Shown one piece after another: positions 20,197-27,123 of a stretch of DNA of 64,000 nucleotides (the first letter of the stretch is position 1; the number at the start of each line of letters is the position of its first letter). The notes beneath the pieces are model-generated. The model had not been told where the DNA came from, ran no database searches, and saw only the letters and a list, made by a program, of their open reading frames with translations. Position numbers and translations under genes: made by a program. The stretch lies in assembly GCF_055900595.2 (NCBI RefSeq), contig NZ_CM148325.1; one strand, written 5' to 3'.

Positions 20197-20242
20197 GATT
20201 TAATAGATAGTATTCAGTGTATGTATGAGTTCCACACCCATT

Positions 20243-21049
20243 ATGAAAGCATTCTGGCGTAACGCCGCGTTGCTCGCGGTTTCTCTGCTTCCCTTCTCTT
20301 TTGCCAACGCCGTGGCGTTGCAGGCAAAACAGTATGGCGATTTTGATCGCTATGTCCTGGCCCTCTCCTGGCAAACCGGATTTTGCCAGAGTCAACACGA
20401 TCGAAATCGTAACGAACGAGATGAATGTCGCCTGCAAACCGAAACGACCAACAAAGCTGATTTTCTGACCGTACATGGTCTATGGCCAGGATTGCCTAAA
20501 TCGGTTGCTGCCCGTGGTGTTGATGAACGCCGCTGGATGCGCTTCGGTTGCGCTACTCGCCCAATCCCGAATCTACCAGAGGCGCGCGCCAGCCGGATGT
20601 GTTCATCGCCGGAAACTGGGTTATCACTGGAAACGGCAGCTAAACTAAATGAAGTCATGCCGGGAGCTGGCGGTCGTTCCTGCCTGGAACGTTACGAATA
20701 TGCCAAACACGGCGTCTGCTTTGGTTTTGATCCGGACGCTTACTTCAGCACGATGGTACGTCTGAATCAAGAAATTAAAGAGAGCGAAACCGGAAAATTT
20801 CTTGCGGATAACTACGGTAAAACAGTGAGCCGCCGTGATTTTGATGCCGCCTTTGCCAAAAGCTGGGGAAAAGAGAACGTGAAAGCCGTTAAGCTAACGT
20901 GCCAGGGTAACCCTGCGTATTTGACTGAAATTCAGATTTCAATCAAAGCTGACGCCATCAACGCTCCGCTTTCTGCAAACTCATTCTTGCCACAACCACA
21001 CCCAGGCAACTGTGGCAAAACCTTTGTGATTGATAAAGCAGGTTATTAA
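20243..21049 (+). CDS. rna: Periplasmic ribonuclease I (RNase T2 family)
   Basis: ORF trimmed to MKAFWRNAALLAVSLLPFSFA (signal peptide), 268 aa; T2-family HGLWP motif present. Confidence 0.93.
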   Translation: MKAFWRNAALLAVSLLPFSFANAVALQAKQYGDFDRYVLALSWQTGFCQSQHDRNRNERDECRLQTETTNKADFLTVHGLWPGLPKSVAARGVDERRWMRFGCATRPIPNLPEARASRMCSSPETGLSLETAAKLNEVMPGAGGRSCLERYEYAKHGVCFGFDPDAYFSTMVRLNQEIKESETGKFLADNYGKTVSRRDFDAAFAKSWGKENVKAVKLTCQGNPAYLTEIQISIKADAINAPLSANSFLPQPHPGNCGKTFVIDKAGY

Positions 21050-21196
21050 TCCTCTGATTTACAAAAGACGCTAATTCGTCTTCCATAAACTATGACGATT
21101 AAGATTTATACATAATGCGCTGCATTGAGGAATTCCCTGAATGTGACGCAAATCACTTCAAAGAGTGAGCAACAGTCAGTATCATCATGTGAGTTA

Positions 21197-21230
21197 AACC
21201 CTCGCCGCCTGACGGTGAGGGTTTTCTTTT
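21197..21230 (+). terminator. Putative rho-independent terminator between rna and rnk
   Basis: aaccctcgccgcctgacggtgagggtt hairpin followed by a T-rich run. Confidence 0.55.
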
Positions 21231-21278
21231 GGGTATGTTTATCTGCGACACTCGCAGTACCGACGACATGGAGTAAAA

Positions 21279-21689
21279 ATGTCCAGACCAACTATCATCA
21301 TTAACGACCTGGATGCCGAACGCATCGATATTCTGCTGGAGCAACCCGCCTATGCTGGTTTGCCAATCGCCGACGCGTTAAACGCAGAGTTGGATCGCGC
21401 CCAAATGTGTTCGCCAGAAGAGATGCCACACGACGTGGTGACAATGAACAGCCGGGTTAAATTCCGCAATCTTAGCGATGGCGAAGTGCGTGTGCGCACG
21501 CTGGTGTATCCGGCAAAAATGACCGATAGCAATACTCAGCTTTCCGTTATGGCTCCGGTAGGTGCCGCACTGCTGGGGCTGCGCGTTGGCGATTCCATTC
21601 ACTGGGAACTTCCGGGCGGCGTTGCAACCCACCTTGAAGTGCTGGAACTCGAATACCAGCCAGAAGCTGCTGGCGACTACCTGCTTTAA
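21279..21689 (+). CDS. rnk: Regulator of nucleoside diphosphate kinase (GreA/GreB-like)
   Basis: 136-aa [25 protein letters not shown]... matches Rnk. Confidence 0.93.
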
Positions 21690-22044
21690 TCCCATCTGCA
21701 CAAGCGACAACTCGCTTTGCCCAGAGGATGCACTCGCATCCTCTTTCCGCTCAAATATCAACCAGATTTATCATTTTGCTCTTAAGCACAGCATTCTAAT
21801 CTGAACTGGTTATTCATCTGCGGAACCCCATATGAGCGAAGCTCTCAGTATCACTGCGTTTTATATATTCATAGCAGCTATTATTGTTGCTGCAGTGCTA
21901 TACCTTGAACAACGCTGGTAGTACCTGGTTTTATTTATTTTCCAGATCAATCGCAAATTCAGATCGAATCAGCCTCGCAAATCATAGATTCATAATCAAT
22001 AATGTGCTGTTATGTATACATGCAAAAACAAGGAGAGAATGCTT

Positions 22045-22473
22045 ATGTACAAAACAATCATCATGCCAGTGGATGTTTTCGAAATGGAATTGAGCGACAA
22101 AGCTGTTCGCCACGCTGAATTCCTCGCCCAGGATGACGGAGTTATTCATCTACTTCACGTACTACCGGGGTCAGCCAGCCTGAGCCTGCACCGTTTTGCC
22201 GCTGATGTACGTCGTTTTGAAGAGCATCTGCAACATGAAGCAGAAGAACGTCTGCAAACGATGGTCAGCCACTTCACCATCGATCCTTCCCGCATTAAAC
22301 AACATGTCCGTTTTGGTAGCGTGCGGGATGAAGTCAATGAGTTGGCAGAAGAACTGGGGGCTGATGTTGTCGTTATCGGTTCGCGCAACCCATCGATTTC
22401 GACCCATCTGTTAGGTTCTAACGCCTCAAGCGTTATCCGCCACGCCAATCTGCCGGTGCTGGTCGTTCGCTAA
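22045..22473 (+). CDS. uspG: Universal stress protein G
   Basis: ORF trimmed to [21 protein letters not shown]... (142 aa), with AGGAGA 8 nt upstream. Confidence 0.92.
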
Positions 22474-22482
22474 TAGATAAAA

Positions 22483-22557
22483 GTATTTATGTCGCCCTGC
22501 CCGGAGCCATCCCGGCGGGGCTTTTTATTGCAATAAAAAAGCCGCCAGGTTTGACCC
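22483..22557. terminator. Back-to-back terminators between convergent uspG and ahpF
   Basis: Hairpin ...gccctgcccggagccatcccggcggggc + TTTTT serves uspG on the plus strand; gccgccaggtttgaccccggcggc with an A-run on plus (T-run on minus) serves ahpF. Confidence 0.7.
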
Positions 22558-22594
22558 CGGCGGCTAAGCAATTGCAGGTGAATCTTACTTCTTC

Positions 22595-24160
22595 TTATGC
22601 TGTTTTGGTGCGAATCAGGTAGTCAAAAGCACTCAGAGAGGCTTTGGCACCTTCGCCAGTGGCGATGATGATCTGCTTGTACGGAACCGTTGTACAGTCA
22701 CCCGCAGCGAACACGCCTTTGACGTTGGTTTCGCATTTCGCATCAATGATAATCTCGCCCATGCGGTTACGTTCGACTGCGCCTTCGAGCCAGTTGGTGT
22801 TCGGCAGCAGACCAATCTGGACGAAAATACCGGCCAGTTCGATGTTGTGAATATCGCCGCTGACACGATCGCGATATTCCAGACCAACAACTTTGCTGCC
22901 GTCGCCTTTCACTTCCGTGGTTTGCGCATTCAGAATAATGTCGACGTTTTTCAGGCTGCGCAGTTTGTCCTGCAGAACCTGGTCGGCTTTCATTTCTGGC
23001 GCAAATTCCAGCAGAGTTACGTGCTCAACGATACCCGCCAGGTCGATTGCCGCTTCCACGCCGGAGTTACCGCCGCCGATGACCGCTACGCGTTTGCCTT
23101 TAAACAGCGGGCCGTCGCAGTGCGGGCAGTAGGTCACGCCTTTGGTGCGATATTGATCTTCGCCCGGAACGTTCATGTTACGCCATTTTGCACCGGTCGC
23201 CACGATAATACTGCGTGCTTTCAGTACCGCGCCAGAAGCTGTTTCAATCTGATGCAGGCCGCCTTCAACCGCTGCCGGGATCAGTTTGCTGGCGCTCTGG
23301 CTGTCGATCACATCAACGTCGTATTCATCAACGTGAACTTTCAGCGCACCTGCCAGCTTCTGCCCTTCGGTCTTCGGTACAGAAATGTAGTTTTCGATAT
23401 CAACGGTATCGAGGATCTGACCACCAAAACGTTCGCCCATCAGACCAGTACGAATACCTTTACGTGCGGAGTAAATTGCTGCCGCTGCACCCGCAGGGCC
23501 GGAACCAACGATTAATACGTCATAAGCATCACGCTTGTTCAGCTCTTCTGCCGCACGTTTTTCCGCGCCAGTATCGATTTTGGCGACGATTTCGGAAATA
23601 GTCATGCGGCCCTGACCAAACTCTTTCCCGTTTACGAACACTGCCGGAACGCCCATCACGTTGCGATCGGTGATTTCGTTCTGGAAGGTGCCGCCGTCAA
23701 TTGCCGTATGCTTGATGCGCGGGTTCAGTACGCTCATCAGGTTCAGCGCCTGCACCACGTCCGGGCAGTTGTGGCAAGAGAGCGAGTAATAGGTTTCGAA
23801 TTCAAAATCACCGTCAATATGGCGAATCTGCTCCAGCAGAGACTGCGCTTCTTTCGACGGATGACCACCGGTCCACAACAACGCCAGTACCAGCGAGGTG
23901 AACTCGTGGCCCAGCGGGGAACCTGCAAAACGTGGCCCCTGGTTGGAACCTGGGTTAGTGATCAGGAAAGACGGCTTACGCACCGGCAAGCTGTTATCTT
24001 CTTTAAAGGTGACTTTGTCTGACAGTTCTGCGATTTCAGCCAACAGTTCCTTGATTTCTGCCGATTTAGCGCTGTCATCCAGCGTGGCAATTAACTCAAC
24101 AGGCTTGGTCAATTTCTCAAGGTAAGCCTTGAGTTGAGTTTTCATATTTGTGTCGAGCAT
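22595..24160 (-). CDS. ahpF: Alkyl hydroperoxide reductase subunit F (flavoprotein disulfide reductase)
   Basis: ORF trimmed to [13 protein letters not shown]... (521 aa), AGGAG RBS; CxxC motifs (CHNC, CPHC) and FAD/NAD folds. Confidence 0.95.
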
Positions 24161-24330
24161 GTTTATCTCCTGGGCTTTAAACATCATCATGCAAGCGGCC
24201 TCTGCGGCTACCTGGATGCAGCTTGCATCATGGTGCGGGGAAGAAAATCGGGTGCCGCAGCACCCGAAGAATTAGGTGAATTTCCGAAGTATTTCGCGCC
24301 GGAGTTGGTAGCGCGAAAGACGAAGGAAAT

Positions 24331-25266: not shown

Positions 25267-26013
25267 ATGTTAAAAAAGATACTTTTACTGGCTCTGCTTC
25301 CTACAATCGCCTTTGCAGAGGAACTTCCTGCTCCGGTAAAAGCGATTGAAAAACAGGGCATTAAGATCATCAAAACGTTCGATGCCCCCGGCGGAATGAA
25401 AGGTTATCTCGGCAAGTATCAGGATATGGGCGTCACCATCTACCTGACTCCAGATGGTAAGCACGCTATCTCTGGTTACATGTACAACGAGAAAGGTGAA
25501 AACCTGAGTAACATGCTTATCGAAAAAGAAATTTATGCGCCAGCCGGACGCGAAATGTGGCAACGGATGGAACAATCGCACTGGCTCCTCGACGGTAAAA
25601 AAGACGCGCCAGTCATAGTCTACGTTTTCGCCGATCCGTTCTGCCCATATTGTAAACAGTTCTGGCAGCAGGCGCGCCCGTGGGTTGATTCTGGCAAAGT
25701 ACAGTTGAGAACATTGTTGGTTGGGGTTATCAAACCAGAAAGTCCGGCGACAGCCGCGGCAATTCTGGCCTCTAAAGATCCCGCAAAAACCTGGCAAGAA
25801 TATGAAGCCTCTGGCGGCAAACTTAAGCTAAATGTGCCTACAAACGTAAGTGCAGAGCAAATGAAAGTGTTAAGCGACAACGAGAAACTCATGGACGATC
25901 TGGGGGCAAATGTCACACCGGCTATCTATTACATGAGTAAGGAAAATACGCTGCAACAGGCCGTGGGGTTGCCCGATCAGAAAACGCTTAATATCATCAT
26001 GAGAAATAAATAG
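25267..26013 (+). CDS. dsbG: Periplasmic thiol:disulfide interchange protein DsbG
   Basis: ORF trimmed to [17 protein letters not shown]... (248 aa); thioredoxin CPYC active site. Confidence 0.93.
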
Positions 26014-26220
26014 AAGGTAATTCATGGGTGGTTGAAATACATTCTTGCTTTTCAACCATTCTAAAAACGCATGAATTGCTTCTTCCCCTCCTGACAACTG
26101 TGTTACTTTAGAAAAACTTAATCCAGAGTTAAGTAATAAAACATAACAAATATAAATAAAACAGTAGAATCATTGATTACAAGAATGATTTATGGAAAAG
26201 ATAATATAACGGAGTATGTT

Positions 26221-27123
26221 ATGGCTAATCTTTATGATTTAAAAAAATTCGACCTCAATTTACTGGTCATATTTGAGTGCATTTATCAACACCTCAGCAT
26301 TAGCAAAGCAGCAGAATCATTATATATAACGCCATCTGCCGTTAGTCAGTCGTTACAACGTTTACGCGCGCAATTTAATGACCCGTTATTCATCCGCTCA
26401 GGGAAAGGTATCGCGCCGACTACAACAGGGTTAAATCTGCATCACCATCTTGAGAAAAATCTCCGAGGCCTTGAACAAACGATCAATATCGTTAATAAGT
26501 CTGAGCTGAAGAAAAATTTTATTATCTACGGTCCTCAGCTTATTTCTTGTAGTAATAACAACATGCTAATCCGCTGTCTAAGACAAGATACTTCAATCGA
26601 TATAGAATGCCATGACATACTGCTTTCAGCTGAAAACGCTGAAGAATTGTTAGTTCAACGCAAAGCTGACCTGGCAATTACACTGCAACCAGTAATTAGC
26701 CGCTCTGTCATCTGCATGCCGGTACATACTATTCGCAATTCTCTTATATGTAGCAACAAACATCCTCGTATTACCGATACCAGTAACTATGAACAAATTA
26801 TCGCCGAAGAATTCACCTTGTTGATATCTAAATCAGCAGGGATTGACGAAATTCAAATGGACATAGATGAACGTTTTATGAACCGTAAAGTTTCATTTCG
26901 CAGTTCTTCTTTGTTGACGATAATTAATAGTATTTCTGTTACTGACTTATTGGGCATTGTGCCCACCGAACTGTACGATTTACATCGTGATTTTTTGAAG
27001 TTACAAGAGATAAAACTGGAACGACCACTTCCTACGGTTAAACTTTATATTTCCTATAACAAGGCTTCGTTGAACAACCTTGTCTTCTCACGATTCATAG
27101 ATCGTTTAAATGATAGCTTCTGA
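26221..27123 (+). CDS. ybdO: LysR-family transcriptional regulator YbdO
   Basis: Start taken at MANLYDLKKFDLNLL... (300 aa, GGAG RBS); N-terminal HTH; strongly AT-rich coding sequence. Confidence 0.85.
   Translation: MANLYDLKKFDLNLLVIFECIYQHLSISKAAESLYITPSAVSQSLQRLRAQFNDPLFIRSGKGIAPTTTGLNLHHHLEKNLRGLEQTINIVNKSELKKNFIIYGPQLISCSNNNMLIRCLRQDTSIDIECHDILLSAENAEELLVQRKADLAITLQPVISRSVICMPVHTIRNSLICSNKHPRITDTSNYEQIIAEEFTLLISKSAGIDEIQMDIDERFMNRKVSFRSSSLLTIINSISVTDLLGIVPTELYDLHRDFLKLQEIKLERPLPTVKLYISYNKASLNNLVFSRFIDRLNDSF

Follow-up and report, generated by a model that had tools for sequence, protein, structure and literature searches.

MgrB, SafA and MzrA are small single-pass modulators of sensor kinases. 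Proteins of this kind that act on membrane sensor kinases have been reviewed (PMC12648545). YoaI of Escherichia coli, a small protein of the inner membrane, is described as binding the sensor kinase EnvZ and activating it (PMC11429745). Ser26, Val27 and Glu31 of YoaI are given there as invariant, and Glu31 is placed in the cytoplasmic tail; the substitutions E31A and E31Q are reported to abolish both EnvZ binding and EnvZ-OmpR activation while membrane location is kept (PMC11429745).

YldA of E. coli K-12 has been detected, together with other small proteins, by epitope (SPA) tagging on the chromosome and immunoblotting (VanOrsdel 2018, PMC6001520). The entry in that paper places it in the ybdR/rnk interval at 643330-643419 with the sequence MAEAFYILIGFLIMAAIIVMAVLYLENHS, and the protein was detectable at its native locus in rich medium. 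The ybdR-yldA pair of K-12 has been given as a case of convergent transcript overlap, an 'excludon' (PMC12288877), and yldA is among the genes upregulated by sodium fluoride (PMC10100675). We found no functional study of YldA in the literature; papers after VanOrsdel 2018 name yldA only in lists. The gene order in K-12 is uspG (-), ybdR (+), yldA (-, b4734) and rnk (-), and yldA converges on ybdR across a gap of 3 nt.

A compact rnk-uspG spacer carrying yldA

The window analysed here is a stretch of 64,000 nt, and the features of the locus are collected in Table 1. A sequence-only reading of it had reported that 355 bp separate rnk from uspG, that ybdR, expected between these genes from K-12, appears absent, and that the spacer holds a 29-codon ORF on the plus strand behind a weak GGAA Shine-Dalgarno sequence. 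All of this held. The spacer runs from 21690 to 22044, directly between the end of rnk and the start of uspG, and the K-12 record does have ybdR between the two genes. A tblastn search with K-12 YbdR (E ≤ 1e-3) gave no match anywhere in the 64-kb window. The coordinates reported for the ORF were exact, and GGAA lies 6 nt before its ATG.

The ORF is yldA. When 21600-22100 was searched by megablast in 5426 complete E. coli genomes, strain Z0117EC0005 matched it at 100% identity, and RefSeq there labels the ORF 'yldA: small membrane protein YldA'; the yldA label is also present on every compact-type genome among the matches listed. The peptide matches the NCBIfam equivalog model NF041476 ('small membrane protein YldA') over positions 1-29 of 29 with 57.9 bits (E = 6.8e-16), above the curated cut-off of 45 bits. 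On the Pfam model PF23689 ('YldA-like') the window allele scores 26.5 bits, 0.5 bits under the gathering threshold of 27, compared with 73.6 bits for the K-12 allele. We attribute this near miss to a model built around K-12-like sequences and give it less weight than the NCBIfam result and synteny. Annotation pipelines that rely on Pfam would miss the YldA allele of about a third of E. coli genomes, by 0.5 bits.

The position of the gene is the expected one. In the window, yldA shares the strand of rnk and starts 142 nt past the rnk stop, compared with 137 nt in K-12, and its stop is followed after 123 nt by the start of the co-oriented uspG. Since K-12 itself has yldA between ybdR and rnk, the ORF is no substitute for ybdR.

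Table 1. Positions of features at and around the rnk-uspG spacer, in window coordinates.
Feature	Position	Strand	Basis
rna	20225-21049	+	ORF list
rnk leader RNA element, upstream of rnk	21125..21233	+	Rfam RF01771, 124.9 bits (gathering score 50; E = 1.1e-24)
rnk CDS, nucleoside diphosphate kinase regulator, 136 aa	21279..21689	+	ORF list, K-12 identity, RefSeq annotation of identical strain
rnk 3' hairpin, (A)GAGGATGC-ACTC-GCATCCTC(T), then TTCC	21723..21748	+	RNA fold
Compact-type haplotype block, 276 nt	21751..22026		no blastn match to K-12 between 21750 and 22027
Shine-Dalgarno sequence of yldA, GGAA, weak	21822..21825	+	sequence; 6 nt before ATG
yldA CDS, 29 aa, MSEALSITAFYIFIAAIIVAAVLYLEQRW	21832..21921	+	RefSeq annotation of identical strain, NCBIfam NF041476, conserved frame
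uspG proximal promoter region (inferred)	21990..22037	+	conserved motifs in compact-spacer alignment
uspG Shine-Dalgarno sequence, AAGGAGAG	22030-22037	+	conserved A(A/G)GGAGA motif
uspG CDS, 142 aa	22045..22473	+	RefSeq annotation of identical strain, tblastn
ahpF	22595-24190	-	ORF list

Conservation of the reading frame

With Rnk as bait we collected 80 loci from species-representative Enterobacteriaceae genomes, and these were searched with an HMM built from the two E. coli YldA alleles. A yldA orthologue was found in 34 of the 80, in every case co-oriented with rnk and some 135-150 nt past it. When the window and K-12 were added and the sequences trimmed to the conserved Met, an ATG start and exactly 29 codons were present in 36/36. 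The frame is kept across Escherichia, Citrobacter, Enterobacter, Lelliottia, Leclercia, Kosakonia, Phytobacter and others. At 5-8 nt ahead of the ATG, a purine-rich motif (GGAA, GGGGA or GGGAA) is present in most orthologues.

Summed column entropy over the 36 sequences was 19.1, 14.0 and 34.3 for the first, second and third codon positions, so that the third varies about twice as much as the other two. Stops occur in the +1 frame of 33 of these sequences and in the +2 frame of 27. Pairwise NG86 dN/dS had a median of 0.24 and was below 1 in all usable pairs (429/429); for yldA of E. albertii against that of an E. coli-like representative, dN was 0 and dS was 0.30. When 35 sequences from many genera were aligned, six residues (M1, E3, A21, V22, L25 and E26) were invariant, and the window allele has all six. 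Taken as a sequence pattern, this conservation is the signature of a translated gene rather than of a promoter or an RNA element.

Compact and K-12 haplotypes

From 21200 to 21750, a range that spans rnk, the window is 99.5% identical to K-12 at the nucleotide level. The alignment breaks at 21750, just past the rnk 3' hairpin, and starts again at 22027, with 18 nt left to the uspG ATG. The K-12 counterpart of the intervening 276 nt is about 1.6 kb long and comprises a divergent yldA allele, ybdR and the ybdR-uspG promoter region. No DNA similarity between the two blocks is detectable by blastn. The haplotypes differ in the uspG promoter region and in the YldA allele, the two proteins being identical at 15 of 29 residues (52% identity) with synonymous sites saturated.

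The difference is no simple deletion relative to K-12; 21751-22026 is a different, deeply diverged haplotype. Local alignment of the spacer to the K-12 ybdR/uspG-upstream region revealed no ybdR remnant or deletion scar; its score of 28 compares with a mean of 23.8 and a maximum of 39 for shuffles.

Even by word-11 blastn, the compact block was detected in no more than 1818 of the 5426 complete E. coli genomes, and 1816 of these have it at full length. The K-12 block is present in 3600. UTI89, NRG 857C and a Nissle-derived strain are among those with the compact block. The exact variant of the window (at least 99% identical) was found in 18 genomes. Its yldA is a Ser6 variant of the compact-type allele; the four other compact-type Escherichia sequences compared, those of NRG 857C, E. 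albertii and two further representatives of the genus, have Gly6.

The presence of yldA and ybdR was tallied in 77 species representatives together with the window and K-12. Neither gene was found in 34, yldA without ybdR in 22, both genes in 13, and ybdR without yldA in 10. Most spacers with yldA and without ybdR measure 351-366 nt, and five measure 388 to 513 nt. Loci in the 351-366 nt range come from Escherichia, Citrobacter, Enterobacter, Lelliottia, Kosakonia and Phytobacter, and the similar lengths across these genera indicate that the compact layout is old and widespread. The compact form is a common natural variant and no lesion, being carried by about one-third of complete E. coli genomes, by E. 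albertii and by many other Enterobacteriaceae.

Two further loci have structures of their own. Enterobacter asburiae TN152 (locus L056, 1040-1230, compared with L026) is without ybdR, yet retains the ybdR ATG and Shine-Dalgarno sequence directly after the yldA stop; this clean deletion scar shows that other genera have lost ybdR independently. E. coli HH97 (locus L086, 2462-2870) has a rare hybrid haplotype in which a K-12-type yldA, its stop lost at about codon 27, continues into a homologue of the compact-type yldA-uspG spacer, followed by a ybdR 5' remnant of about 250 nt. We considered HH97 as an intermediate haplotype and drew no conclusion, as the G-rich, frameshifted remnant suggests poor sequence or assembly quality.

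Identity to K-12 also varies beyond the block. The uspG 5' part (22027-22226) is 94.0% identical and the uspG-ahpF intergenic region (22427-22626) 91.5%, and the surrounding genes are less diverged. This lower identity shows the diverged haplotype fading gradually on the uspG side, with an abrupt edge on the rnk side. Another locally diverged allele block lies at about 25900-26840, where identity to K-12 is 77-90%, compared with about 97-99% elsewhere; in the annotated identical strain this range takes in the 3' end of dsbG, the spacer between dsbG and citR, and a portion of citR.

The rnk 3' hairpin and the region upstream of uspG

The hairpin past rnk lies at 21724-21743, with a flanking A at 21723 and a T-tract (TTTCC) at 21744-21748. 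The 61-nt stretch from 21700 to 21760, which also holds a second small hairpin, folds with -21.4 kcal/mol (z = -5.2). The exact stem GAGGATGC-N3-5-GCATCCTC is found in 52 of the 80 species loci whatever lies downstream, with variable loop and flanks. Since loci without yldA have this invariant hairpin too, it belongs to rnk, and it is probably the rnk terminator. It also marks the left edge of the E. coli variable haplotype block. One would expect covariation in a plain terminator; the stem of this hairpin is instead invariant in sequence.

Ahead of uspG, the conserved elements lie in the last ~60 nt before the ATG. Two such elements are shared by compact spacers of several genera, the uspG Shine-Dalgarno sequence and an extended -10-like motif, TG-n-T..AAT, some 35 nt upstream of the start codon. 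They place the putative uspG core promoter downstream of yldA, so that the ORF does not lie inside it.

A consensus scan predicted no promoter or terminator site between 21690 and 22044 and found no sigma-70 consensus upstream of yldA; TCTAAT at 21795-21800 is a candidate -10 element for the gene. The yldA 5' region (21780-21850, z = +1.15) and 3' end (21895-21960, z = -0.45) fold no better than shuffles, and the spacer has no Rfam match except a chance hit to a snoRNA model below threshold. Because no convincing terminator is predicted between them, yldA and uspG may be co-transcribed, or linked by read-through, in the compact haplotype.

Resemblance of YldA to YoaI

The best 19-residue Kyte-Doolittle window of YldA covers residues 5-23 with a mean of 2.65, and the GRAVY value is 1.37. 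From this hydropathy, YldA is predicted to form one transmembrane helix at residues ~5-25. By analogy with YoaI, the proposed orientation is N-out/C-in, with a periplasmic N-terminus of 3-4 residues (Met-Ser-Glu) and a cytoplasmic tail of four (Glu26-Gln-Arg-Trp).

The model for YoaI, NF041475, is the only significant non-self family match of YldA. The window protein scores 30.2 bits on it (E = 3.6e-7), below the curated cut-off of 45 bits, and YldA is therefore no YoaI orthologue. The same model is matched by 34 of 35 YldA sequences at E ≤ 1e-3, the best at 1.2e-8. In the reciprocal direction the match is weak (E = 0.035); K-12 YoaI scores 18.8 bits on the YldA HMM, above all 10,000 composition-preserving shuffles, with maxima of 12.5 bits in 5,000 full shuffles and 14.3 bits in 5,000 core-only shuffles.

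YldA residues 1-29 align ungapped to residues 6-34 of E. coli YoaI (34 aa) with 11/29 identities, YldA being without the 5-residue N-terminal extension of YoaI. Two motifs are common to both proteins, E-x-L-x-I-T close to the N-terminus and (A/S)-V-L-x-(L/I)-E-(Q/R) at the C-terminal end, and the invariant A21, V22 and E26 of YldA superimpose on the invariant S26, V27 and E31 of YoaI. The genes differ in location, yldA following rnk and yoaI lying between yeaK and yeaL. The scores are compatible with YldA being a distant paralogue of YoaI, and the likeness may also have arisen by convergence, given some 30 hydrophobic residues.

Discussion

We consider it very probable that the ORF is yldA in its usual place, set in a compact haplotype without ybdR, with a product that would act as a single-pass inner-membrane modulator. 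Gene identity, conserved synteny, purifying selection on the frame and the frequency of the two haplotypes are shown by the present analysis. The role as a modulator is one that we infer by analogy, because of the resemblance to YoaI. YldA would bind a larger inner-membrane protein and tune its activity, as many small membrane proteins do. Its target would most likely belong to the sensor kinases or similar membrane proteins, and contact would be made through the helix face with Ala21-Val22 plus the membrane-proximal Glu26.

Three other explanations deserve consideration. Type I toxins are small, extremely hydrophobic peptides with weak Shine-Dalgarno sequences, and they are usually silent. 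YldA recalls them in its 29 aa, its GRAVY of 1.37 and its weak Shine-Dalgarno sequence, and the convergent ybdR-yldA overlap of K-12, the 'excludon' of PMC12288877, would suit a membrane-depolarising peptide like Ibs, ShoB, DinQ or TisB, whose translation is normally kept down by an overlapping or antisense RNA. Such a toxin is nonetheless very improbable here. Over many genera the gene keeps a single copy in strict synteny behind rnk, its K-12 product is detectable from the native locus in rich medium, where a type I toxin would usually be silent, and its closest relative, YoaI, is a signalling modulator. Moreover, the spacer matches no Rfam antisense or sRNA family, and the compact haplotype has no convergent gene to supply an overlapping RNA. 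We give less credence still to selection acting on an RNA feature, either an sRNA derived from the rnk 3'UTR or a uspG 5' leader, with the frame as a by-product. The strikingly sequence-invariant hairpin at 21724-21743 and the place of yldA on the same strand between rnk and uspG in the compact haplotype would fit such a feature, but that hairpin is also present in loci without yldA. Variation within the ORF is codon-periodic and amino-acid motifs are kept while the DNA is saturated; the ORF ends (z of +1.15 and -0.45) fold no better than shuffles, and no Rfam family matches.

The least probable of the three is a chance open frame, yielding no protein, in AT-rich DNA that serves only as the uspG promoter and rnk 3' region. 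Short ORFs are abundant here, with 47 of at least 20 aa in 3 kb, so that a 29-codon ORF by itself is at chance level; the Shine-Dalgarno sequence is weak and the consensus scan found no promoter. What lifts yldA above chance is conservation: a 29-codon ATG frame held over many genera, substitutions concentrated at third positions and a dN/dS of about 0.24. This pattern of sequence change already effectively refutes a chance frame. In addition, the product of the K-12 orthologue has been detected (PMC6001520), and the conserved elements ahead of uspG come only after the ORF, within ~60 nt of the uspG ATG.

These results also settle what the sequence-only reading had left between two options, an unannotated small membrane protein and a coincidence within the uspG promoter region. 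The second fails on a frame conserved in 36/36 sequences at dN/dS below 1 and on the downstream position of the conserved uspG elements. The first was right in kind: the NF041476 match and the conserved frame make this a real small membrane protein, with its membrane location predicted from hydropathy. It was mistaken as to novelty, since it overlooked the K-12 yldA between ybdR and rnk (b4734), and RefSeq annotates yldA in the identical strain. Of the checks that the reading had proposed, conservation and dN/dS came out in favour of the gene, with the 29-codon ATG frame in 34 other Enterobacteriaceae species and a median of 0.24. The K-12 record has ybdR at this place and the window has none, and alignment to K-12 revealed a diverged block instead of a plain deletion.

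The gene is already named and annotated, with NCBIfam and Pfam families of its own, and the finding is real but ordinary. As a discovery it carries little weight, yldA being known and the absence of ybdR being ordinary pangenome variation. Its residual interest lies in the depth of the allelic dimorphism, the altered neighbourhood of yldA relative to uspG, and a YoaI-like mechanism that can be tested. Expression of YldA is documented for the K-12 allele only, which is half-identical to the allele of a third of E. coli strains.

Beyond yldA as a modulator gene in a compact haplotype, a bolder version can be put forward, which we regard as unlikely though worth stating. YldA would be a YoaI paralogue whose invariant Ala21-Val22 and Glu26 face serves to tune a sensor kinase or another protein of the inner membrane, and E. 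coli would keep two ancient versions of the locus that differ in function. If so, yldA would possibly be co-transcribed with the stress gene uspG in the compact form and convergent with ybdR in the other. A third of E. coli, including the B2 strains UTI89 and NRG 857C, would then wire YldA and UspG unlike K-12.

The pairs MgrB-PhoQ, SafA-PhoQ and MzrA-EnvZ have the same general design as that proposed for YldA, in which a protein of <50 aa with one transmembrane helix binds a larger membrane protein. No sequence similarity was detected between YldA and MgrB, SafA or MzrA, and the analogy is confined to architecture and the resemblance to YoaI. The closest counterpart is K-12 YldA (b4734), which has the same 29 aa length, the same position about 140 nt after rnk, the same invariant residues and a single hydrophobic helix. 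The two differ in their downstream neighbour: in the window, yldA is followed at 123 nt by the co-oriented uspG, whereas in K-12 it meets the convergent ybdR at 3 nt.
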